From positions 1 through 64,000 of the IMG/VR virus record IMGVR_UViG_3300035670_000048: a stretch of DNA of 64,000 nucleotides; one strand, 5' to 3'. Origin of the DNA: a virus (Duplodnaviria > Heunggongvirae > Uroviricota > Caudoviricetes). Position 1 is the stretch's first letter. Each line of letters opens with the position of its first letter. The notes under the pieces were generated by a model that saw nothing but the letters and a program-made list of their open reading frames with translations, made no database searches and was not told the origin of the DNA. The translations under genes were made by a program, and so were the position numbers. This document shows, one piece after another, positions 21,067 through 62,304 of the stretch.

Positions 21067-21105
21067 TCTTATGCATCTGTAATAATTAACTAATAAACAA
21101 TATTG

Positions 21106-21197
21106 TGGTTAGGACAGGATTCGAACCTGTATGAGAGATAACCATTCCTTTATTCCCTCTATCTGTTAATTAGCGTCTACCATTCCGCCACCTAACC
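21106..21197 (-). tRNA. tRNA-like gene, 91 nt (type II-length). Anticodon not resolvable by eye.
   Basis: The RC reads GGTTAGG-TG-GCGG-AATGGTAGA-CGC...ACAGG-TTCGAAT-CCTGT-CCTAACC-A. It has a perfect 7-bp acceptor, a 3-bp D-stem and a canonical T-arm. I could not fold a standard anticodon arm. Confidence 0.55.
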
Positions 21198-27345: not shown

Positions 27346-27399
27346 GTTTGTTTGTTTTAATACATTATAAATGTAATTAAGAAATTTATTTAATCCAAG

Positions 27400-27523
27400 T
27401 AGTCAGTACAGGATTCGAACCTGTGATAGTCTCCATCAGCACATTGATAAAGCAGAGACTCCGCCATTCCTCTCCAAGAATTAGCGTCAATGTTTCGGTA
27501 CGTGTTCCTCTCGCCACCTGACT
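27400..27523 (-). tRNA. tRNA-like gene, 123 nt (acceptor/D/T arms tRNA-like, with ~50 nt of extra internal sequence).
   Basis: RC: AGTCAGG-TG-GCGA-G...ACAGG-TTCGAAT-CCTGT-ACTGACT. The acceptor is 6/7 paired. It shares its 5' and 3' ends with the 21106 and 40691 elements. It contains an internal near-duplication (TGGCGAGAGG / AATGGCGGAG). Confidence 0.4.
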
Positions 27524-30688: not shown

Positions 30689-31408
30689 TTATTTTTTATA
30701 TGTATTAAATTTAATTTCACCGTTATCAATGATCATATACTCGCCTGATGTTCCTAATGTATCAATATAGTAGTAACGACCATTTGTTGATTTACCTTCA
30801 CGATCGATTTTATTCTGTTGAGTATGACCTACAACTTGAATGAACTGATCACGTAATGTATCACGATTAGCTTTCTGAAGTGATTTAGGACGAATCCAAA
30901 TTGGAGACGATTCAACACTATCACCATATGGACTCAATCCAGTAAATCTAAACGGACGTGATGATGAATCCCACATTTCGTTTATATTATCTGCTACATT
31001 ATCACCTTCTAAATGCAACATTTTCATCCAGTAAGTATACCAATCATTACTTACACCAGCGTGAGTGAATAGATAACCATCCATTTCGTATGCCATCTGT
31101 AGGTGTTCTGTATTATTGAATAATAAATCATTAATAGCTGGAGCAGCACCGGCTTGATATCCACTATAACGTTCTGAGCCATCCATATAATGAAAGTCAT
31201 GATTACCAACTAATATGATTACCTCTGCTTTGTCTGATAATTTGAAGTTAATTATCTGTTCAAAGTTTGACATCTGCTCGGCCGCAGTATAATCATCGTA
31301 TGAATCAAAGTAATCTCCAATGAATATAACTCGATCTGGTTGTTCGTCTATTACGATTTGCTTCCAGCAATCACGACCATGGATATCACCTATTACAACT
31401 GTTTTCAT
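30689..31408 (-). CDS. PPP-family Ser/Thr or diadenosine-tetraphosphatase-type metallophosphoesterase.
   Basis: Signature motifs GDIHGR ... GDYFDSY ... GNHDF. Confidence 0.65.
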   Translation of the reverse strand: MKTVVIGDIHGRDCWKQIVIDEQPDRVIFIGDYFDSYDDYTAAEQMSNFEQIINFKLSDKAEVIILVGNHDFHYMDGSERYSGYQAGAAPAINDLLFNNTEHLQMAYEMDGYLFTHAGVSNDWYTYWMKMLHLEGDNVADNINEMWDSSSRPFRFTGLSPYGDSVESSPIWIRPKSLQKANRDTLRDQFIQVVGHTQQNKIDREGKSTNGRYYYIDTLGTSGEYMIIDNGEIKFNTYKK

Positions 31409-32623: not shown

Positions 32624-32660
32624 ATTAGATATTTTATTTATATATAAATATAATCAAGAA

Positions 32661-32680
32661 AGGGGAACCTAAGCTCCCCT
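32661..32680 (-). terminator. Rho-independent terminator after the small lipoprotein gene.
   Basis: aggggaacctaagctcccct. On the gene strand GGGGAGCTTAGGTTCCCC is followed by TTTCTTGATTATATTT. Confidence 0.5.
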
Positions 32681-32700
32681 TTACCTAATACTAACTCTGA

Positions 32701-32871
32701 TTACTTAGCAGCAGCAGTGTCAGCAGCTACTGAATCAGCAGCAACTGTATCTACAGCAGCAGTGTCAACTGCAGTTGTGTCAGCAGCAGATTCTGATTTA
32801 GAACCACCACATGATACTGTAGCTAAAGCGAATGTTAATGCAACGAACGTTAGTGCGAATAATTTTTTCAT
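32701..32871 (-). CDS. Small secreted lipoprotein (56 aa) with AADT(A/V) repeats. GC-richer than its surroundings.
   Basis: Translated by eye: MKKLFALTFVALTFALATVSCGGSKSESAADTTAVDTAAVDTVAADSVAADTAAAK*. The track's +32717..32920 ORF is its antisense artefact. Terminator hairpin downstream at 32661-32680. Confidence 0.45.
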   Translation of the reverse strand: MKKLFALTFVALTFALATVSCGGSKSESAADTTAVDTAAVDTVAADSVAADTAAAK

Positions 32872-32955
32872 TTTTGTTTTATTTTGGTTATTTAATTTAT
32901 TTACAACTTATTTTACTTAATATAAATATACTGAAGAAATCCTGAAATTCTAATC

Positions 32956-34071
32956 TTAATGACTATCTCCAACGTCTTTCTTTTCAGCATAGATGTGGTA
33001 GTCGGGATTAATTACTTTGGCTACTTTACTTCTATCACCTGATTCCTCTTTGATAACGATACCTTCATGTGGTACTTTAGTGCCGTCAATGAATTGATTG
33101 AATGTAAATGCATCTTGTACTTCTTGAGACCAGAACCCTCTATACAGTAACTCTACATAATGTAATTTTAAAGTAGCGATCTCACTGTCTGATCGATGTA
33201 CTGATAAGTATTTACCATCCACCTCAACATCAAATCCTACAAACTCGATATCATCTAAACCATATTCATAATTCTTTTGGATACCTTTACCGAATACTTC
33301 TCCATAAACGATAAAACCAGTACCAATCAATTCAGGTGAATACCATGTTTTAACATGAGCCCATAATTTGTCTTTGATATCATATCGATCAGCAATTGTT
33401 CTCCATACATCAGTATCATAGAATCCTTGTGTATCAGATCCTTTTTCAACGTTGTGTGAGCCATAAATGAACTCATAATTAGCCCATTCATTACCGAAGA
33501 ATTTCCTTACTTTATCCCACAATGATAACTTATTCTTCTTGATAATACCGTAACGAGCATTTGTACCATGAATCTTACGAGTAATTTCTACTACGTCGTC
33601 TTCAGTAAACATATTAGGTACGTTCTTGAAGTTAGGGAACTTATAGTAAACGTGGAAATTTGGATTATCCTTGTATTTAATCTTACGTCCACCTGCTAAT
33701 TGTACTTGTCTAACTGGTGGTTCATATTTGTAGATACCTAACTCCTTCATCAAATCATCACCCTCATCATGGAATGTTCTAATATAACCATAAGGAATAA
33801 TTAAACATTCAGAATAAACACCACGTAATTTAATAGTACGTACACGTCCGCCTTTACGTAAGTAATTAGTAACACCGATTCGGTCAGATAATTCTTCAGG
33901 AATGATAGCGTCTGTAGTAGCGATAACTGCTTTTTGATCTATATAGTATTCGCCTTTCTTACTGATGCAATTCCATCCGTTTACTACTACTAATTCGATG
34001 TTGTCTGCTCCGTCAATCGGTTTGATGTCGGTAACTTTACCTACGAAGCATACTGAGTTATTGTTTTCCAT
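32956..34071 (-). CDS. ATP-dependent RNA ligase (Rnl2/Rnl5-like nucleotidyltransferase with an N-terminal OB-like extension).
   Basis: 371 aa. Covalent nucleotidyltransferase motif I KIHGTN (KxHG) at ~residue 165. N-terminal ~150 aa VGKVTDIKPIDGADNIELVVVNGW... resembles the OB domain of Rnl5-type ligases. As I recall it, T4 Rnl2 carries KIHGTN. Confidence 0.55.
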   Translation of the reverse strand: MENNNSVCFVGKVTDIKPIDGADNIELVVVNGWNCISKKGEYYIDQKAVIATTDAIIPEELSDRIGVTNYLRKGGRVRTIKLRGVYSECLIIPYGYIRTFHDEGDDLMKELGIYKYEPPVRQVQLAGGRKIKYKDNPNFHVYYKFPNFKNVPNMFTEDDVVEITRKIHGTNARYGIIKKNKLSLWDKVRKFFGNEWANYEFIYGSHNVEKGSDTQGFYDTDVWRTIADRYDIKDKLWAHVKTWYSPELIGTGFIVYGEVFGKGIQKNYEYGLDDIEFVGFDVEVDGKYLSVHRSDSEIATLKLHYVELLYRGFWSQEVQDAFTFNQFIDGTKVPHEGIVIKEESGDRSKVAKVINPDYHIYAEKKDVGDSH

Positions 34072-34240
34072 TGATTGATATTGATTTATATATTCCTGCT
34101 AGTTCTCCTTTTTCGTATTGTAGTTTTAAATCTACTTGTTCAAGTGATAATAATATATCTTTTAATTCTAGTACAAGTTCTAAATTACCTGCTTCTAATT
34201 GCTCGTAGATTCTTTCTACTACTGTTTGTTCATTTTCCAT
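34058..34240 (-). CDS. Hypothetical protein. Start re-assigned to MENEQTVV...
   Basis: The track ORF 34058..34348 overlaps 34230..34412 by 119 nt. The internal ATG at 34240 gives a normal 11-nt overlap. Confidence 0.4.
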   Translation of the reverse strand: MENEQTVVERIYEQLEAGNLELVLELKDILLSLEQVDLKLQYEKGELAGIYKSISINGKQ

Positions 34241-34412
34241 CTTCAATAATTTTAATTGTTTTAGGATCAACAGGCCAGATAGGCATACGATCAAGTGTGA
34301 CTTGAAAATCACCACTAAAACCAATACCTGCAAAAGTACAAATACCAACTAATGGTTCGTTTGGCCATCTTGGAGATATTACTGATATTTTCTTTCCTAT
34401 TAAGTGTTCCAT
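34230..34412 (-). CDS. Hypothetical protein.
   Basis: 60 aa ORF. Motif at 34428-34454. Confidence 0.45.
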   Translation of the reverse strand: MEHLIGKKISVISPRWPNEPLVGICTFAGIGFSGDFQVTLDRMPIWPVDPKTIKIIEDGK

Positions 34413-34427
34413 TTGTTTGTTTATCTT

Positions 34428-34454
34428 ATTATACTGTAAATATAATTAAGAAAT
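34428..34454 (-). promoter_or_regulatory. Early promoter motif, class A.
   Basis: ttatactgtaaatataattaagaaat. Confidence 0.55.
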
Positions 34455-35051
34455 TTGGTCTATACTATCTGGATAATATAGTAATGTTGGATTCTTTTTC
34501 TGAATATCGATATCAGGATATTGTTTTTTAAATTCCTGAACATCAAATCGCTTTGTGATTAGATGAAAACCATTCTTAGTAGGGATAACTGCGTCTACTT
34601 TATCTCCTACTGGTCGTAAAGTATTAATGAAATCATCAATTGTACCTACAACTTCTAGTAGAGGACTATCAATGTCAACTACCCAACGCTTCTCATGTGT
34701 CTTCAACTGTCCAACAACTGAATCAAATAGTCCTTGTTGTTTGTGTTGTCCACATTTGATTCGTTCAGCCAATGTTACCATCATATCTAACGATACATCT
34801 TTATGACTTTGTTTTTGAATGTGCATGTATGCTCTTGCCTTAAACACCTCACATAGCATTTTAATTTCATCATATCGTTCTTCTAACTGCTCAACTGATT
34901 TAATACAGTATGAACGAATAGTACGAACCGATTGATGGTTTGCTTTATCAGTTGATTGATCCTTTTTACGTTTGAAAACGTATAGCATATAGAAATCATC
35001 CTCATCATCGAAGTTGAGTAATGGTTTGATTAGATTTAAGTTATCGATCAT
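34446..35051 (-). CDS. Hypothetical protein.
   Basis: 201 aa ORF. Confidence 0.5.
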   Translation of the reverse strand: MIDNLNLIKPLLNFDDEDDFYMLYVFKRKKDQSTDKANHQSVRTIRSYCIKSVEQLEERYDEIKMLCEVFKARAYMHIQKQSHKDVSLDMMVTLAERIKCGQHKQQGLFDSVVGQLKTHEKRWVVDIDSPLLEVVGTIDDFINTLRPVGDKVDAVIPTKNGFHLITKRFDVQEFKKQYPDIDIQKKNPTLLYYPDSIDQIS

Positions 35052-35215
35052 AATTCGATTTTTTTAATTTTACCACATTTAGTACACATTAGTATTTGTC
35101 TTACTTTATATGGTCTATTTTCTTTATCACTATGAAATATATTTACCTCATCATGTATTTTCCATTGATGCATACAACCCCATTTAGCTAGTATTTGATT
35201 GATTAGTTCTATCAT
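35048..35215 (-). CDS. Small zinc-ribbon-like ORF (55 aa).
   Basis: Translated by eye: MIELINQILAKWGCMHQWKIHDEVNIFHSDKENRPYKVRQILMCTKCGKIKKIEL*. Confidence 0.3.
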   Translation of the reverse strand: MIELINQILAKWGCMHQWKIHDEVNIFHSDKENRPYKVRQILMCTKCGKIKKIEL

Positions 35216-35601
35216 AATTTAATTTGGAATCTATGTAACATATTACCTATTGATGCTGCAGGAACATTATGTATTGATTCATTACCATGACGATTCTCTA
35301 CAATCAACGAATGAACACGATAACCGTATTTAGCTGCTAATTCATAATAATCTTTCATTTCCCATTCCTGAGTAAATGTGTTTGCTACTACAATTTTAGC
35401 ATCGTTATCTGTCATCCAATCCTCAACTACATCACGACACCACTTATGTGCTGCTGGTAATCCGCGTTGATTAAATTCATATTCGCCTGTTTCTTCATTG
35501 ATAAAGTACATATCTGCTTCGATATGTCTATTAGCTAATAATTCTGCTAATGTTGTTTTACCAGCACCTGGTAATCCTCTTAATAATATTAAATCTTTCA
35601 T
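35212..35601 (-). CDS. P-loop kinase (AAA_33 / polynucleotide-kinase-like). Start re-assigned to MKDLILL...
   Basis: Walker A LRGLPGAGKTT at the N-terminus. The track start at 35661 would run through the promoter motif 35599-35623. Confidence 0.5.
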   Translation of the reverse strand: MKDLILLRGLPGAGKTTLAELLANRHIEADMYFINEETGEYEFNQRGLPAAHKWCRDVVEDWMTDNDAKIVVANTFTQEWEMKDYYELAAKYGYRVHSLIVENRHGNESIHNVPAASIGNMLHRFQIKL

Positions 35602-35623
35602 AATATGAAGATAATTAAGAAAT
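35599..35623 (-). promoter_or_regulatory. Early promoter motif, class B (short), abutting the kinase ATG.
   Basis: cataatatgaagataattaagaaat. Confidence 0.5.
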
Positions 35624-35884
35624 TTAATAATGTAAATCCAAATAAAAACATTCTTTATCATCTAGGTATGTAACCGGACTCCAAACTGCGGAATATTGGT
35701 TATCCCATTCTGGATATATTGGGTCTGGTTTCTTTAAAGTTTTCCATCCACGTTCTTCATAATATATATCTTCTACTCTCTGTGATACTACCAATGCATC
35801 ATCTGGATAATCTTTCAAATATTCTTTTAATTCACCTACTGTTAGATAATGTAGATGTTTTTCTTTAAATTCCTTCGGTGTCAT
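35624..35884 (-). CDS. Hypothetical protein.
   Basis: 86 aa ORF. Confidence 0.45.
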   Translation of the reverse strand: MTPKEFKEKHLHYLTVGELKEYLKDYPDDALVVSQRVEDIYYEERGWKTLKKPDPIYPEWDNQYSAVWSPVTYLDDKECFYLDLHY

Positions 35885-36083
35885 TATTTATTTGTTTAAT
35901 TATGGTTCGATTTATAGGAAATGAAGCAACGATAGTTTTCATGTAAGTGCTTTTTTGTTCAATTTTAAATGTATAACATCCGTTATTGTAATCATATCCA
36001 TCCGCATCTATTTCATATTCAACAATTCCACCACTACCACCTTGGATAGTTCCCGTAATTACATCTAAATAATATCTTTTCAT
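35865..36083 (-). CDS. Hypothetical protein.
   Basis: 72 aa ORF. Confidence 0.45.
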   Translation of the reverse strand: MKRYYLDVITGTIQGGSGGIVEYEIDADGYDYNNGCYTFKIEQKSTYMKTIVASFPINRTIIKQINNDTEGI

Positions 36084-36085
36084 AA

Positions 36086-37231
36086 TTAAAATCCAATCTT
36101 ACGTTTTGTATCTGCGGCTTTGTACTCGATTTCCTGTAAATTGTAAATTTCAGTTAATGTCATGTCATCAGTAGCGACGTGATCCATTCCTAAATGTTTG
36201 ATTAATTTATTAGCATCATCAACATTTAATTTATCGAATTTATGTTCAGCAATTAATCTACCTTTACGTAATAGCGCTGTATCAATCTTCTTACGATCCA
36301 TATTAAACGTGGCGACTATTTGAATGTTTAGTATGTCTCCCAGAATACCGTCAGTCAAGTTTAGTATGTTAGATACACCGTTGGCTCCGTTAGTATCTCG
36401 GTCAGTAATAACACGTTCAGCATCTTCAATGAATAGAATCGAATCACTATTTTCAATTAAAAACGGAGTCATCTCAGGTGAGGTGATGAAATCCACCAAA
36501 TATGGTGGGACGAACATCACCTTCTTGTCCTTGATTTTAGATGCTAAGTATTTTAAGTAGTGTGTCTTACCAGTACCTGGCTCGCCATGTAGTAGTACTA
36601 ATCCTTTACCTTTCTTCTGATTTAATGTTGATAATATCTTATCATGAATCGGAGTAAATGATGAACCGTAATTGTGTTCTAAATCTAATTTTTGCTTAGG
36701 CAGATCGAATGTTTGAGTATCATATCCGTGACGTGTCTGAACGATCAATGATATGTTATTTTCTCTCCTAGGTTTCTTTTTTAGAATCTTAAGTAAATCA
36801 GTACGTAATAATTCATATCCATCTAAGCTAATATTTGAGTATAGAGAGAGTGATGTATCATTATAATCATCTTCTTCGTCTTTAGATTTATTAACTTCAT
36901 TATATGGAGATAATTTTATCATCACTATGCTACTTCCACCATTATTATCATTAACTAATTTACTAAATACTTTAGTTGATGAATGTTTTTTGAATGAAGT
37001 ATAGTCTAAACTATGTACTTCATCAAATTTCCAAGTAGATAACCACTCATCCATTTCCTTAAGATTAAATGAATATCCTGATAGGTATTCATGCTTATTA
37101 ATCCAATGTCCGGTCTTATTTATAGCATAATGAGCATAAGGAAAATCCTCATGATCGACGTTATGGAATGGAGTTGTATTCATTGTTTCGTGTTTACCTT
37201 TAGTTAAATCAGTTATACTTATGTAAGTCAT
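36086..37231 (-). CDS. AAA+ ATPase (classic AAA: Walker A/B, second region of homology) with an N-terminal domain of unknown function.
   Basis: VLLHGEPGTGKTHYLKYLA ... ILFIEDAERV ... ATFNMDRKKIDTALLRKGRL. Confidence 0.6.
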   Translation of the reverse strand: MTYISITDLTKGKHETMNTTPFHNVDHEDFPYAHYAINKTGHWINKHEYLSGYSFNLKEMDEWLSTWKFDEVHSLDYTSFKKHSSTKVFSKLVNDNNGGSSIVMIKLSPYNEVNKSKDEEDDYNDTSLSLYSNISLDGYELLRTDLLKILKKKPRRENNISLIVQTRHGYDTQTFDLPKQKLDLEHNYGSSFTPIHDKILSTLNQKKGKGLVLLHGEPGTGKTHYLKYLASKIKDKKVMFVPPYLVDFITSPEMTPFLIENSDSILFIEDAERVITDRDTNGANGVSNILNLTDGILGDILNIQIVATFNMDRKKIDTALLRKGRLIAEHKFDKLNVDDANKLIKHLGMDHVATDDMTLTEIYNLQEIEYKAADTKRKIGF

Positions 37232-37244
37232 TATACAACTCGTT

Positions 37245-37478
37245 TTATAGTTTTAAATACCACGCTGTGAATTTTTGGATTAATCCAACAATACTTCTTA
37301 TGATCAGTACTACAATAGTTATAAACCATATACATGAAAGTACAGTATATGCTTCTTCATTACTATTCCAATCATAGTGATCATCATCGAATCCAAATGT
37401 TTTACCAAAGAATTTAAAAAATGTCAATGTGAGGAAAAACCCAATTAGATAAATTCCTATAATATATAATAATATCAT
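37245..37478 (-). CDS. Small 2-TM membrane protein.
   Basis: 77 aa. Two hydrophobic helices. Confidence 0.5.
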   Translation of the reverse strand: MILLYIIGIYLIGFFLTLTFFKFFGKTFGFDDDHYDWNSNEEAYTVLSCIWFITIVVLIIRSIVGLIQKFTAWYLKL

Positions 37479-38176
37479 TATACAACTCGTTTTACGTGAT
37501 GATCAAATTCGAATCCGGATTTAACTGGTCTTGGATTCATTAATGTTAATACTTTATTTAACGATATTGGATCCATTCCATTACCATCAACACCTACATC
37601 CATCATTTTACCTTTACCAATACGACGTTCTGGAGGTAAGTGGACATGTCCGTGTAAGTGAATTACATTCTCATTCATGTTATTCCATGACATGATTGGG
37701 TAATGCATCAATACGAAGTTATGTTCTTTATTTATATTTAATTCAACATATTGGTTAACTGATGAGAATATATGTCTAATTCCATCACGATCACGTTCAA
37801 TATGATGATCGTGATTACCTAATACTAAGTGAATATTCTTACAATTAATACGGTCACGGAATTTTTGGATTGATTCAAACCCACCAAACGACCAATCACC
37901 TAAGTGAAATAAGATATCATCTGGACCTACTACTTCGTTAATTCCATTTACAATTCGATCATTCATTTGATCTAATGTTTTGAAATCACGAGTAATATCT
38001 TCAGCATCAGTCCATCGAGTCACTCCTCTACAAATGTTAGTGTGATTATAGTGGGTGTCTGAAGTGAAGTATAGTCGTTGGGTAGGTTCTAATTTAATTT
38101 TCATCATTGAATTTTCCAAATAAATCCTCGCCTTTATAGTCTGGATGGTTTTTGTGCATGTAATCAATCCCACCAA
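37478..38176 (-). CDS. Calcineurin-type binuclear metallophosphoesterase.
   Basis: Motifs YFTSDTHYNH ... HLGDWSFGG ... VLGNHDHH ... HGHVH. Confidence 0.6.
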   Translation of the reverse strand: MVGLITCTKTIQTIKARIYLENSMMKIKLEPTQRLYFTSDTHYNHTNICRGVTRWTDAEDITRDFKTLDQMNDRIVNGINEVVGPDDILFHLGDWSFGGFESIQKFRDRINCKNIHLVLGNHDHHIERDRDGIRHIFSSVNQYVELNINKEHNFVLMHYPIMSWNNMNENVIHLHGHVHLPPERRIGKGKMMDVGVDGNGMDPISLNKVLTLMNPRPVKSGFEFDHHVKRVV

Positions 38177-38464: not shown

Positions 38465-39268
38465 TTAAACTACCTCGGCGTACTCGCTTACATACTGATC
38501 TGCTAATTCCCACAATCCGGAATTGAATTCGATGTCTTGGGTAAAGTTCTTTAACGCTCTTGCTTTACGTGTTTTACCTTTTTCGTTTTGGTAGTTAAAA
38601 CCACCACCAACTAACTTCTCTTGGACACGGTTCAGAATTGCCCACATCGACATACCAGCATCTTCTTTACGTTCAACTACTAATAATTGATCTGTATTAA
38701 TCTCTTTTAAATTATCACCAAAACGCAACTGAGCTGCTTTAGCTGCAAACGCATTTGCTAATTCATCTGAGATTTCGATTTCATTGAATTTATTAATACG
38801 ACCAACTACATCAGGTAAACGTTCTACCATTGTATGAATTAATGAACGTAATGTTTCGAAATCATAACCTTGATGGCGGATTTTTAATGTGCCTAAATCC
38901 TTATCTTTAATCACTAAACCGTTTGAACATACTAAACGGAAAATACCTACTTCAAATCTAAATGTAGACGAACCATCATGTGAATTGGTTAATAATACTT
39001 CAATGTATGAATCTACATTTCCGTTTGCATCAGCCATATACACACCCTCGTTTCTGAATTTAACTAAGTGTTTCTTAATTGCTGAATTGCCACCCTTACG
39101 GGCCTTAACACCAACTGCTTGAACGGGTTCCCATCCTAATTTTCTCATGTCTTCCACTACTTGAATAGTAGGGATTTGAGTGTAATGATCTGATAATCCG
39201 GCTTTATGCTCGGTAGATATTACTGCAGGTGCTAAATTTGCGATTTGATCGTTTGATAAAATGTTCAT
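38465..39268 (-). CDS. Hypothetical protein.
   Basis: 267 aa ORF. Terminator hairpin directly downstream (38444-38457). Confidence 0.5.
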   Translation of the reverse strand: MNILSNDQIANLAPAVISTEHKAGLSDHYTQIPTIQVVEDMRKLGWEPVQAVGVKARKGGNSAIKKHLVKFRNEGVYMADANGNVDSYIEVLLTNSHDGSSTFRFEVGIFRLVCSNGLVIKDKDLGTLKIRHQGYDFETLRSLIHTMVERLPDVVGRINKFNEIEISDELANAFAAKAAQLRFGDNLKEINTDQLLVVERKEDAGMSMWAILNRVQEKLVGGGFNYQNEKGKTRKARALKNFTQDIEFNSGLWELADQYVSEYAEVV

Positions 39269-40373: not shown

Positions 40374-40430
40374 TTTTCCAACCTATACCTCGTAAGCTCA
40401 TCACTACAGCTTCGCTCATCTCTCTTTATG

Positions 40431-40575
40431 TGGTTCTAATGGGAATCGAACCCATGATGTTAAGTCACTTACTTCAATCAACTACTCCTTATTGTGTACA
40501 CCTTAGAGCCTTTTCGATTGACCGTCACGTTAACCCACTCATTGCTTTTGGAGCGACCTCAACAACTATAGAACC
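40431..40575 (-). tRNA. tRNA-like element, 145 nt, with a perfect acceptor stem and T-arm but ~70 nt of extra internal sequence.
   Basis: RC: GGTTCTA-...-ATGGG-TTCGATT-CCCAT-TAGAACC-A. The 7/7 acceptor pairs with sequence 138 nt away. The interior is not foldable as a D/anticodon arm by eye. Confidence 0.35.
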
Positions 40576-40690
40576 ATATTTGATGTCTTTCCATCAGTCA
40601 CTAATTATTATGTCACGTTTCTGTTTTAGCCTATATTTAGGTTTCTGCAAGTGTTTCCGTATTACACGGAGGGCATTAGTTCACCCACTG

Positions 40691-40832
40691 TAGTCAGGAC
40701 AGGATTCGAACCTGTAAATTGCTAATCGTTGTGAGCCTATATAGCATTCATCTCACCGCTTCTACGATTGCGTATACCAATGCTTTTTTATTACTTGCAA
40801 TTAATATATAGCATATATTCCGCCACCTGACC
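40691..40832 (-). tRNA. tRNA-like gene, 141 nt. Same family as 21106 and 27400, with a ~37-nt insertion in the D-loop and a ~27-nt hairpin insertion in the anticodon-arm region.
   Basis: RC: GGTCAGG-TG-GCGG-AAT[ATATGC...AAGCAT]TGGTATA-CGC-AATCGT...[GGTGAG...CTCAC]...ACGATT...ACAGG-TTCGAAT-CCTGT-CCTGACT-A. Acceptor 7/7 (one G-U). Confidence 0.4.
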
Positions 40833-41069: not shown

Positions 41070-41789
41070 TTAAAATCCGAACGTTTTGATATTATCGTCC
41101 TTGTCTATTAGTATAGCTGTTTTAGACTCTACCCAATCACCTGAGTTTAAATAATGGATTCCGTCTATTATTCTATCTTCGGCTGTATGAATATGACCAC
41201 ATATAACACCACTACATTTGTGTTGTTTAGCTAATTTAGCTGCATTTTCTTCAAAATCAGCTATAAATGATACTGCTGATTTGACTTTAGCTTTAATACG
41301 TTTACTAATTGAGTAATATGGTAAGCCGAATGATGCTCTGATACGGTTGAATGTTGTGTTTAATGCTAATGCTAGATCGTATCCAACTGATCCAATTTTA
41401 GCTACCCATTTCCAAGTTGATGAAAATACATCTAAAATATCACCATGAAATACTAAGTATTTCTTACGTTTAATGCCGATTATATATTCTTCACATAACG
41501 TTATATTAGACATTTTAATCATGAAGAACTCAGATAGGAACTCATCATGATTACCTCTAATCCAAATAATATCTGTTTTTTTAGATAACTCAAGTAATCT
41601 AAGTATAACTTTAGTATGTTGTTTTTTCCATTTTGAACCACGTTGTAATGCCCACCCATCAACTATATCACCATTCAATATTAGTTGTTCAGTTGGGTGT
41701 TCGTCTAAGAACTTTAAAAATTCTTTAGCCTGGCTATCTTTAGTTCCTAGATGGAGATCAGACACTATGATGGTTTTATATTTGGTCAT
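41070..41789 (-). CDS. LpxH-like calcineurin-fold metallophosphoesterase.
   Basis: IIVSDLHLGTKD ... LNGDIVDGW ... RGNHDEF ... ICGHIHT. Confidence 0.5.
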   Translation of the reverse strand: MTKYKTIIVSDLHLGTKDSQAKEFLKFLDEHPTEQLILNGDIVDGWALQRGSKWKKQHTKVILRLLELSKKTDIIWIRGNHDEFLSEFFMIKMSNITLCEEYIIGIKRKKYLVFHGDILDVFSSTWKWVAKIGSVGYDLALALNTTFNRIRASFGLPYYSISKRIKAKVKSAVSFIADFEENAAKLAKQHKCSGVICGHIHTAEDRIIDGIHYLNSGDWVESKTAILIDKDDNIKTFGF

Positions 41790-42774
41790 ATAATACGTTT
41801 TCTATTGCTTTTAATACTTGTTCGTCTGTTGATATTTTGAAATTATAATCAGCATCTGGTAGTTTTGTTCTTTCTAAGAACCATCTTAAATACACAGGTG
41901 CTAATTTACCTTTATATCCATTATGAATACGATTTGCTGCTTCAGCATTACATTCTTGTTCATATTGACCCTCAATTGGTATAGTCAAAACTCGTTTATT
42001 TAAGTACAATGCTTCAGCTACTGTTTCAAACCCACCTCCGGTAATTACTCCACTACATCCTAGTAAAGCATACATAAAATCAGATGGATTAGATGGTTTT
42101 AATCGTACATTAGACTTATTCCAAGTAGGTTTATTTACTTGAGATGAAAATATTACAAATTGGTATTCTGGGTATTTACCAAATAGATTCATTAATTCAT
42201 TTGGGTTGTAAGCCGATAAATAAACTAATATATATTTTTTATCGACTACTAACCCTTTACTATCACGTATAACGCTTCTAATATGAGGTGGTAATATGAA
42301 GTCATCATAATCTTTAAAATGAAATCCAACATTATGTTTACATGGAGCGTAATTCTTTAATATCCATTCAGCTACTTTATCCACTTTAGGTGGACGAGGT
42401 GTTTCTTCAGATAGGAATGCAGCGTGGTGAGATAATGATAGTGACTTAATACCTCGTAATTTAGCAGCATATGCTGATATCGGTTCAAAATCTGATATAA
42501 TTAAATCATATTGCTCAACTGGTAATGATAGTATATCCTTAATGAATTGGAATATATTTAATTGCCTGAATGTTTTCCAGTAATCTAATTTACCATTATC
42601 ATAAACGAATGTGAATCCTTTAAGTCGGTATTTAATGTTTTGTCCAATATCGATTGGATTCATTTCACCTGATACTAAAATATCTACATCGTAGTGTTTT
42701 AGAATAGGTAAAATTGACATTGCGCGTGACGCGTGGCCATAACCGGTGCCATTGAAGGCATATAATATTTTCAT
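41776..42774 (-). CDS. GT-B fold glycosyltransferase (GT28 / MurG-like).
   Basis: N-terminus MKILYAFNGTGYGHASRAMSILPIL (GxGxxGH). C-terminal GGGFETVAEALYLNKRVLTIPIEGQ. Confidence 0.45.
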   Translation of the reverse strand: MKILYAFNGTGYGHASRAMSILPILKHYDVDILVSGEMNPIDIGQNIKYRLKGFTFVYDNGKLDYWKTFRQLNIFQFIKDILSLPVEQYDLIISDFEPISAYAAKLRGIKSLSLSHHAAFLSEETPRPPKVDKVAEWILKNYAPCKHNVGFHFKDYDDFILPPHIRSVIRDSKGLVVDKKYILVYLSAYNPNELMNLFGKYPEYQFVIFSSQVNKPTWNKSNVRLKPSNPSDFMYALLGCSGVITGGGFETVAEALYLNKRVLTIPIEGQYEQECNAEAANRIHNGYKGKLAPVYLRWFLERTKLPDADYNFKISTDEQVLKAIENVLYDQI

Positions 42775-62215: not shown

Positions 62216-62230
62216 AACATTTATTTTAAG

Positions 62231-62304
62231 TGGGCCAGGTAGGGATCGAACCTACTACCTCCGCATTATGAGTGCGTTGCTCTAACCGAATGAGCTACAA
62301 GCCC
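62231..62304 (-). tRNA. tRNA-Met (anticodon CAT; could equally be an Ile2-type).
   Basis: RC: GGGCTTG-TA-GCTC-ATTCGGTTA-GAGC-A-ACGCA-CTCATAA-TGCGG-AGGTA-GTAGG-TTCGATC-CCTAC-CTGGCCC-A. Clean cloverleaf (one T-T in the acceptor), 74 nt. Confidence 0.8.

Follow-up and report, generated by a model that had tools for sequence, protein, structure and literature searches.

In the standard account, bacteriophage T4 repairs tRNA that has been cut by PrrC with two enzymes, Pnkp and Rnl1. The cutting of tRNA is a frequent anti-phage weapon of hosts and competing elements, and phages can answer it by tRNA supply or repair. Bacterial Pnkp combines kinase, metallophosphatase and ligase in a single polypeptide (PMC3675462), and for jumbo phages, RNA repair by ATP-grasp RNA ligases in combination with polynucleotide kinases and phosphoesterases has been described (Iyer et al. 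2021, PMC7824862, section 3.4.9). Rnl5 enzymes, a ligase group whose architecture was defined by Unciuleac and Shuman, who also noted phage homologs, seal 3'-OH/5'-PO4 nicks if the 3'-OH strand is RNA (PMC4408790). Here, we describe a locus that encodes a predicted Rnl5-type RNA ligase, a small polynucleotide-kinase-type kinase and a metallophosphoesterase as separate proteins. It is located in a 64,000-nt stretch of DNA of a large, uncultured phage of the Caudoviricetes (positions 1 to 64,000 of IMG/VR record IMGVR_UViG_3300035670_000048; the window). The locus probably constitutes a heal-and-seal RNA repair module of separate proteins, directed at cut tRNA or another structured RNA.

Protein families of the ligase, the kinase and the phosphoesterases

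All genes of the region lie on the minus strand and are closely packed, with several overlaps of 1-4 nt. A reading of this DNA made without database searches (the sequence-only reading) had singled out four ORFs, encoding the ligase, the kinase, a metallophosphoesterase and an AAA ATPase, and all four were present on this strand where it had placed them. The Pfam families it had predicted were recovered for the three presumed repair enzymes (PF09414 for the ligase, AAA_33 for the kinase and PF00149 for the phosphoesterase).

The ligase had been described as a nucleotidyltransferase of the Rnl2/Rnl5 type, with the motif KIHGTN and an OB-like extension, and this description held. The protein covered the whole PF09414 profile (RNA_ligase; positions 3-171 of 171, E 1.7e-15), and its N-terminal part matched the PHA02142 OB-fold (PF21189, E 3e-13). 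Matches were also obtained to phrog_968 ("RNA ligase", E 7e-55) and, with the full length aligned, to NCBIfam TIGR02306 (DRB0094 family, E 1e-26). When a profile of 25 homologs was compared with the PDB, it matched NgrRnl (5cot, E 5.8e-21) and T4 Rnl2 (E 1e-3). Residues 10-128 of NgrRnl pair with residues 10-126 of the phage ligase, and the C-terminal half of the latter pairs with NgrRnl 216-323. In these homologs, each of motifs I, III, IIIa, IV and V has an invariant counterpart: K166, H168, G169 and T170 of KIHGTN (motif I), Y-G-E258 (III), F280-D281 (IIIa), E336-G337-x-V-x-K341, i.e. EGIVIK (IV), and a motif V-like R347/K352. The protein stops 19 residues past K352 and has no C-terminal domain. 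Judged from its sequence, the ligase has the Rnl5 architecture, comprising an N-terminal OB-like domain and a nucleotidyltransferase domain with no C-terminal appendage. It is ~25% identical to annotated phage members of the family.

The proposal that the second enzyme is a minimal P-loop kinase of the polynucleotide kinase type was borne out by its match to PF13671 (AAA_33, E 1e-11) and by its P-loop GLPGAGKTT (GxxGxGK[ST]), in which G9, P11, G12, G14, K15 and T17 are invariant. Since the homologs are 127-131 aa long, the ATG at position 35601 was taken as the start; the mechanical ORF extends to 35661. A single-sequence PDB search was uninformative. With a profile of 31 sequences, the best solved relative was T4 polynucleotide kinase (E 4e-5), and a fungal RNA kinase ranked next, ahead of PSTK, the kinase domain of CthPnkp and Pnkp1. 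The E-values of adenylate and shikimate kinases were all >0.06, and the protein therefore groups with polynucleotide kinases and not with these small-molecule enzymes. In the profile alignment to 1ly1, the invariant D30 pairs with Asp35 of T4 Pnk, a residue which we take, from the enzymology of T4 Pnk, to be the catalytic general base. This alignment ends at residue 100, ahead of a further invariant segment, E-N-R104-H-G. The fold, too, is nearer to polynucleotide kinases than to small-molecule kinases; the values listed against known kinases were 14.1 for CthPnk, 13.9 for T4 Pnk, 12.6 for PSTK and 11.2 for Pnkp1, with mammalian PNKP (10.4), shikimate kinase (8.2) and adenylate kinase (8.0) at the lower end. 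By Pfam, a second domain is absent from the 129-aa protein.

For the third activity there are two metallophosphoesterases to consider, designated MPP_B and MPP_A. MPP_B is the protein that had been assigned to the calcineurin fold. This assignment was upheld by matches to PF00149 (E 2e-6) and phrog_547 (E 1e-44) and by the metal motifs of the superfamily, SDTHYNH (SDTHxxH), GDWSFGG (GDxxFGG), GNHDHH, MHYP (H-Y-P) and HGHVH, every one of which is conserved among 25 close homologs. Since these homologs begin at MMKIKL methionines, the gene probably does not start with the TTG at 38176, and its start was moved to ~38107. The sole PDB match of the MPP_B profile was 1xm7 (Aquifex aq_1665, E 6.5e-16).

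MPP_A carries the motifs GDIHG, GDYFD, GNHD and GHT, which are invariant among its homologs, and matches the NinI-like phosphatase family phrog_246. A further match is to phrog_8238, a family of 737 positions that bears the label "RNA ligase": MPP_A aligns with its positions 173-306 and the kinase with its positions 1-107. From these matches, phrog_8238 looks like a phage counterpart of trifunctional Pnkp, and it is MPP_A, not MPP_B, that matches this Pnkp-like fusion family (no match of MPP_B to phrog_8238 was found at E 1e-3). Against the PDB, the single-sequence search with MPP_A was uninformative and the profile search found nothing. MPP_A directly follows MPP_B in five related loci (L010, L019, L025, L031 and L070), and only about an eighth of the loci have it near the ligase. 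Both phosphoesterases gave weak matches to the model of the ligase-associated DNA-damage phosphoesterase PdeM, TIGR04123 (E 3.6e-4 for MPP_B and 1.5e-5 for MPP_A), far under its 150-bit cut-off. MPP_B is the main candidate for the healing of 2',3'-cyclic-phosphate or 3'-phosphate ends, with MPP_A as a possible one.

The sequence-only reading had seen here exactly the three activities of Pnkp. The three enzyme assignments stand, and neither of the results named in advance as refuting them, a ligase without motifs III, IV and V or a kinase grouping with adenylate/shikimate kinases, was obtained; MPP_B is, however, of the aq_1665 type and not of the lambda-phosphatase type found in Pnkp. The link of MPP_B to the other two enzymes is also less tight than this statement implied, as MPP_B stays in close relatives without the kinase and the ligase.

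Gene linkage, tRNA arrays and the indel cassette

A scan of IMG/VR with the ligase yielded 80 loci (62-88% identity), and linkage was counted in the 49 that extend at least 5 kb on both sides of the ligase. In 43 of these 49 loci, no more than 5 kb separates the kinase from the ligase (no more than 500 nt in 28); the same holds for MPP_B in 36, and for both together in 34. When any candidate phosphoesterase is admitted (MPP_B, MPP_A, cREC, HAD_SAK_2 or a third metallophosphoesterase), the count rises to 44/49, and g201, the 201-aa orphan encoded between kinase and ligase, is found at this distance in 13/49. All kinase and MPP_B matches in the 80 loci are on the ligase strand, and the gene order is variable. 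The ligase-kinase-phosphoesterase neighbourhood thus recurs in dozens of related loci and is beyond chance.

Other genes also recur near the ligase in relatives. Among them are two domains predicted to act in RNA repair, cREC_REC (20 loci) and HAD_SAK_2 (15 loci). ATP-dependent DNA ligase genes are in the vicinity in 10 related loci as well as in coliphage phi92, Pseudomonas phage Pyxpy02 and Cellulophaga phi17:2. Genes for NAD salvage, i.e. nicotinamide phosphoribosyltransferase (NAMPT) and ribose-phosphate pyrophosphokinase (PRPP synthetase), are repeatedly found at a distance of a few kb from the RNA ligase gene in phage lineages that are not related to each other (e.g. L003, 5359-6228; L041, 7088-8590; L082, which is Pyxpy02; and L087, which is Gordonia phage Trax), and their recurrence suggests a shared counter-defence island. 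In the window itself, no homologs were found of the genes that are frequent near the module in relatives (cREC, HAD_SAK_2, a 239-aa phosphoesterase, ThyA, NAMPT and PRPP synthetase).

Many of the related modules are preceded by tRNA genes. Among the 68 loci with at least 3 kb of upstream sequence, same-strand tRNA genes lie upstream in 33, and ten or more of them in 20. In five loci (L015, L036, L038, L053 and L080), the gap between the last tRNA and the first module gene is 67-97 nt. In Flavobacterium phage immuto, which encodes the closest cultured homolog of MPP_B (58.5% identity), the phosphoesterase gene begins 12 nt past a run of four tRNAs. A phage tmRNA was called by ARAGORN within the tRNA arrays of L038 (1871-2246) and L053 (2396-2771), with the tag peptide DVELSTMTFEDVMSFVGADYAIAA.

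The window carries four tRNA-like elements that each combine a 7-bp acceptor stem with a canonical T-arm; none of these elements was called by default ARAGORN or Rfam. An exact 17-nt T-arm, ACAGGTTCGAATCCTGT, is present in three copies against 0.01 expected. The three elements with this 17-mer also share a D-arm-like segment (consensus GGCGGAATGGTAGACGC), presumably of the Leu/Ser type. Their middles, 40-100 nt long, are not conserved between copies. The flanking "tRNA-like genes" of the sequence-only reading are therefore real, non-random structures, but not canonical tRNAs. Their interpretation as intron-containing tRNAs was rejected on the missing default ARAGORN and Rfam calls, the unconserved middles and the relaxed ARAGORN solutions, which force introns, mismatched anticodon stems and implausible A34 anticodons. 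In a simple scan for an acceptor stem plus T-arm, ligase loci yielded 22 elements per 100 kb and loci fetched with the AAA ATPase 0.6, and over-long tRNA-like elements were seen inside the tRNA arrays of ~20 other ligase loci.

Loci fetched with the AAA ATPase were compared with the window by blastn. Three of them (L090, L091 and L093) are collinear with it between ~27 and 42.8 kb where covered, at 74-89% nucleotide identity. The segment from ~32,900 to 36,085 is missing in all three, with ~190-240 nt in its place. This cassette contains the kinase, g201, the ligase and four small ORFs, the first three being gained or lost jointly. Immediately after the ligase stop codon, the final 15 nt of the AAA gene recur in degenerate form. 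The degenerate direct repeat of the AAA 3' end (AAGATTGGATTTTAA versus TAAGATTAGAATTTCA) occupies positions 32898-32960 and 36086-36100 of the window and 6135-6160 of L090, and the repeat bracketing the cassette looks like an insertion or deletion footprint at the indel junction. MPP_B, the AAA ATPase and MPP_A are kept in all three relatives (MPP_B of L093 is a fragment at the cut end of the locus). Since relatives without the cassette keep MPP_B, the kinase and the ligase form a tight unit, with MPP_B as a looser partner.

Two of the tRNA-like elements (40430-40832) lie on a 670-nt segment missing in L090 and L091. L091 and L093 do not reach the site of the third element. Co-variation of the tRNA-like elements with the cassette is suggestive, and consists of a single comparison with three mutually similar relatives.

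The AAA ATPase, which had been counted as part of the enzyme set, was rejected as a member of the module, being absent from all 80 ligase loci. It adjoins MPP_B in five loci (L090-L094), whether the kinase and the ligase are present or not. Its N-terminal half (~190 aa) is uncharacterised, and its family, phrog_14322, is of unknown function.

The g201 family (phrog_14949) has thousands of homologs in 1944 clusters at 50% identity, none of them annotated. Among cultured phages, its members are confined to those of Bacteroidota and to gut or metagenomic phages (Cellulophaga, Tenacibaculum, Prevotella Lak, crAss-like). Its gene adjoins that of a CCA-adding enzyme in Cellulophaga phi17:2 and is near an RNA ligase gene in crAss phage cr116_1; two further contexts were uninformative. 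In 109 diverse members, N4, R28, K30, R73 and D126 are invariant and W123, D128, G161, H163 and K185 nearly so. No Pfam match was obtained with the single sequence or in per-member scans, in which the longer family members were likewise domain-free, and the 109-sequence profile found nothing in the PDB. The predicted model is of moderate quality (pLDDT 74); the fold search returned nothing specific, with only uncharacterised phage proteins in BFVD. A primase-like identity for g201 was considered and not retained, as neither fold nor profile searches gave a significant match, and it remains a guess. The protein is possibly a fourth repair component; that it might be a nucleotidyltransferase-like end-remodelling enzyme is only an idea. 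The small protein g55 has a C-x-H...C-x-x-C pattern and matches phrog_28857, phrog_8294 and phrog_7696, all of unknown function; its gene adjoins that of the kinase in L094. The host is probably a member of the Bacteroidota, judging by the best matches to Flavobacterium and Cellulophaga phages, the distribution of g201 and the G+C content of the window (32%).

The features of the region are listed in Table 1. Read 5' to 3' on the minus strand, the order is: the tRNA-like pair (40832-40430), lysozyme, a 72-aa ORF, the DUF932 protein, a 59-aa ORF, MPP_B, a 77-aa membrane ORF, the AAA ATPase, 72- and 86-aa ORFs, the kinase, the 55-aa ORF, g201, a 60-aa ORF, the ligase, the 56-aa lipoprotein-like ORF and the terminator-like hairpin, with MPP_A further downstream. 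The hairpin is likely to mark the end of the transcription unit. The lipoprotein-like ORF encodes a signal peptide and a cysteine, followed by a 15-nt tandem repeat encoding an Ala/Asp/Thr/Val-rich tail, and the DUF932 protein recurs near the module in ~10 related loci. Upstream of the tRNA-like pair, a gene at 41070-41789 on the minus strand encodes an LpxH-like metallophosphoesterase (UDP-2,3-diacylglucosamine diphosphatase model, E 2e-16, below cut-off) and overlaps a gene for an MJ1255/VC2487-family glycosyltransferase (41776-42774, minus strand); together with MPP_A and MPP_B, this makes three metallophosphoesterase genes in 11 kb. In a promoter scan, which does not cover Bacteroidota promoters, sites were no commoner than in shuffled sequence. 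PADLOC matched no module protein to any defence system, and megablast of 12 kb of the window against cultured phages gave no match.

Table 1. Features of the RNA repair-like locus and its surroundings (positions in the window)
Feature	Position	Strand	Remarks
Rnl5-type ATP-dependent RNA ligase, 371 aa, predicted	32956..34071	-	PF09414 + PF21189
201-aa orphan g201	34446..35051	-	phrog_14949; inside cassette
g55, 55-aa ORF	35048..35215	-	between kinase and g201, 4-nt overlap with each
Polynucleotide-kinase-type P-loop kinase, stand-alone, 129 aa	35212..35601	-	PF13671 AAA_33
AAA+ ATPase, 381 aa	36086..37231	-	PF00004, E 1.4e-9; phrog_14322
Metallophosphoesterase MPP_B, aq_1665 / phrog_547 type	37478..38107	-	PF00149; phrog_547; start approximate
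Second metallophosphoesterase MPP_A	30689..31408	-	PF00149, E 2e-10
Indel cassette, ~3.2 kb	32900..36085	-	order g72, g86, kinase, g55, g201, g60, ligase
Terminator-like hairpin, 10-bp stem	32659..32682	-	consensus scan only
tRNA-like elements, two	40690-40832 and 40430-40575	-	acceptor stem + T-arm
tRNA-like element, third	27399..27523	-	on 152-nt segment missing in L090
tRNA-like element, fourth	21105-21197	-	acceptor stem + T-arm
Lysozyme	40234-39614	-	
DUF932 protein	38465-39268	-	PF06067, E 2e-26; between lysozyme and MPP_B
56-aa lipoprotein-like ORF	32701-32871	-	between ligase and terminator-like hairpin

Candidate RNA repair and rival explanations

Starting from the observed protein families, catalytic motifs, kinase fold, gene linkage, adjacency to tRNA arrays and cassette indel, we infer each enzymatic activity, the RNA substrate and the counter-defence role along the following lines. 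A metal-independent RNase of the host or a competitor would cut tRNA or another structured RNA, leaving 5'-OH and 2',3'-cyclic-phosphate or 3'-phosphate ends. The 129-aa Pnk-type kinase would phosphorylate the 5'-OH, and a binuclear metallophosphoesterase, MPP_B in the first place and possibly MPP_A, would clear the 2',3'-cyclic or 3'-phosphate. The Rnl5-type ligase would then be adenylylated by ATP on Lys166, pass the AMP to the 5'-phosphate and seal the nick, base-pairing meanwhile keeping both RNA pieces together. The kinase and the ligase, with the orphan g201 between them, would move as a 3.2-kb accessory counter-defence cassette; the AAA ATPase is a bystander. The RNA-repair role put forward in the sequence-only reading thus gains support from the conserved linkage, the adjacency to tRNA arrays and the recurrence of the kinase-phosphoesterase pair alongside a second ligase family. 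It would be hard to explain why healing and sealing genes recombine across phage lineages unless they belong to one pathway.

Several points weigh against this interpretation. Homologs of MPP_B occur in 1525 records of cultured phages, compared to 677 for the kinase and 562 for the ligase, and MPP_B may therefore have another or a broader substrate. It is present without an adjacent kinase or ligase in L090, L091, L093 and phage immuto, and its one solved relative, aq_1665, is a structural-genomics protein without known function. No tRNA or tRNA-like element is contained in the fetched flanks of 37 of the 80 ligase loci, among them those of the two closest relatives of the ligase, and the window has one canonical tRNA gene (Met, 62230-62304; default ARAGORN and Rfam). 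The ligase scores 93.6 bits on TIGR02306, under the equivalog cut-off of 151.15, which makes it a divergent member. Characterised Rnl5 enzymes seal duplex nicks and not anticodon-loop breaks, and their physiological role has been called "uncharted" (PMC5397189).

The features of MPP_B raise the question of whether the three enzymes share one pathway. The kinase and the ligase could act on RNA ends while the phosphoesterase works elsewhere, e.g. on cyclic (di)nucleotide signals of host immunity, and lies nearby merely through the clustering of accessory counter-defence genes. Its retention without the kinase and ligase in close relatives and immuto, and its being ~2-3 times as widespread as either partner, fit such a separation. 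So do the NAMPT, PRPP synthetase and macro-domain genes of neighbourhoods that resemble counter-defence islands, and the proposal that calcineurin-like phosphodiesterases of jumbo phages degrade signalling nucleotides (PMC7824862, section 3.4.8). However, MPP_B is within 5 kb of the ligase in most of the loci counted and, in unrelated phages whose ligase belongs to a different family, it again stands beside kinase and ligase; moreover, a kinase-ligase pair requires 3'-end healing for ends produced by metal-independent RNases; we regard separate pathways as rather unlikely. Repair of DNA breaks or nicks is also an unlikely function. By a LigD-like logic, the kinase and phosphoesterase would clean 5'-OH and 3'-phosphate DNA ends and the Rnl5 enzyme would seal ribo-tailed nicks, with g201 perhaps adding the ribonucleotides, and phage DNA would be guarded from host nucleases. 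Rnl5 needs RNA in the 3'-OH strand only, two ribonucleotides being enough, and loss of DraRnl makes D. radiodurans sensitive to ionising radiation (PMC4408790, PMC5397189); the nearby ATP-dependent DNA ligase genes and the PdeM matches of both phosphoesterases point the same way. Against this, those matches are far under the cut-off, the primase-like reading of g201 found no significant match, and the module sits directly behind tRNA arrays, with cREC and HAD_SAK_2 domains and a CCA-adding enzyme as neighbours. Moreover, the same kinase-phosphoesterase pair accompanies Rnl1-type ligases, the family of the T4 tRNA-repair ligase.

The remaining alternatives centre on the cassette and the tRNA-like RNAs. 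It is quite improbable that the cassette includes g201 as an end-remodelling enzyme, e.g. a miniature primase-polymerase-like one that refills trimmed RNA, or that it acts with the tRNA-like RNAs, which in that case might be substrates, anticodon-nuclease decoys, or templates or splints for the ligase. A very small probability attaches to the idea that the phage's own tRNA-like RNAs (27399-27523, 40430-40832 and 21105-21197) are cut by an endonuclease and rejoined, in splicing of the yeast or plant style or in a rearrangement. The eukaryal tRNA ligase Trl1 unites kinase, cyclic-phosphate esterase and ligase activities (PMC6379707), L090 and L091 lack both the cassette and the 40430-40832 elements (L090 also the one at 27399-27523), and over-long elements accompany the ligase elsewhere. 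This co-variation nevertheless comes from one comparison with mutually similar relatives, and no candidate splicing endonuclease was found in the ~26-45 kb of the window that was scanned. The "introns" exist at the relaxed ARAGORN threshold only, with mismatched anticodon stems and A34 anticodons, the middles differ between copies, and in many relatives the cassette is beside intron-less tRNA arrays or, in 37 loci, there is no tRNA-like element at all. The suggestion that the enzymes process insert-containing tRNA-like RNAs, which the sequence-only reading had offered as a second option, rests on these forced solutions and is not supported. Repair of RNA cut by foreign nucleases thus remains our preferred explanation, and the presence or absence of the cassette among collinear relatives offers a ready comparison for the counter-defence role.

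Comparison with known systems

The repair concept is already established in T4, in the bacterial Pnkp/Hen1 system and, through comparative genomics, in jumbo phages (PMC7824862), and both phage Rnl5 homologs and Pnk-ligase pairs are already annotated. The present locus is a widely conserved example in uncultured, probably Bacteroidota-infecting phages. Its addition is modest: it supplies a context for the Rnl5 family and evidence that healing and sealing modules can be exchanged, and it offers a clean natural indel as well as two companions, g201 and the tRNA-like RNAs, that are as yet unexplained. Placement behind tRNA arrays, beside a Pnk-type kinase and a phosphoesterase, gives the Rnl5 family a concrete, testable job.

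Similar gene sets are present in cultured phages. In Pyxpy02, an HD hydrolase gene is followed by a 56-aa ORF, the calcineurin-like phosphoesterase, two small ORFs, the RNA ligase and a "putative polynucleotide kinase", and in phi92 the order is phosphoesterase (gp097), gp096 and ATPase (gp095). In both phages, members of the same kinase (~45-52% identity) and phosphoesterase families flank an RNA ligase, and the phosphoesterase of Pyxpy02 is homologous to MPP_B (hhalign 99.7%). Their ligases are, however, of the Rnl1 type (PF09511) and not of the Rnl5 type. Since phi92-like and Pseudomonas phages combine the same kinase-phosphoesterase pair with another type of ligase, the healing and sealing of ends look like exchangeable modules. 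Trax encodes a protein annotated as polynucleotide kinase, then one small gene and an Rnl5-type ligase; its kinase-annotated protein is larger than the one described here (315 aa versus 129 aa). NAMPT and PRPP-synthetase genes are often close by in phi92, Pyxpy02 and Trax. No biochemical characterisation of these triads was found in the literature searched.

The phage ligase has the same domain plan as DraRnl and NgrRnl, with significant similarity to NgrRnl in both domains. Motif I is KLDG in NgrRnl but KxHGT in the phage protein, which represents a divergent branch. Compared to the Pnkp and Rnl1 of T4, where the kinase is fused to a DxDxT (HAD) phosphatase, the kinase described here stands alone, the candidate 3' phosphatase is a metallophosphoesterase, and the ligase is an Rnl5-type nick sealer (PF09414 + PF21189) instead of Rnl1. 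The Pnkp/Hen1 and Pnkp1-Rnl-Hen1 systems (Clostridium thermocellum, Capnocytophaga) differ in several respects from this locus, in which three separate ORFs have other genes between them, MPP_B belongs to the aq_1665 clade and not to the lambda-phosphatase clade, and the ligase is Rnl5, not Rnl4; no Hen1-like methyltransferase domain was found among the proteins scanned (~26-45 kb of the window). The RNA repair described by Iyer et al. for jumbo phages follows the same concept, with large tRNA sets and a counter-defence role, and its cREC and "Swiss-army-knife" HAD domains recur in relatives of the window. The difference is that here a calcineurin-like enzyme is the common neighbour of the ligase (36/49 loci).

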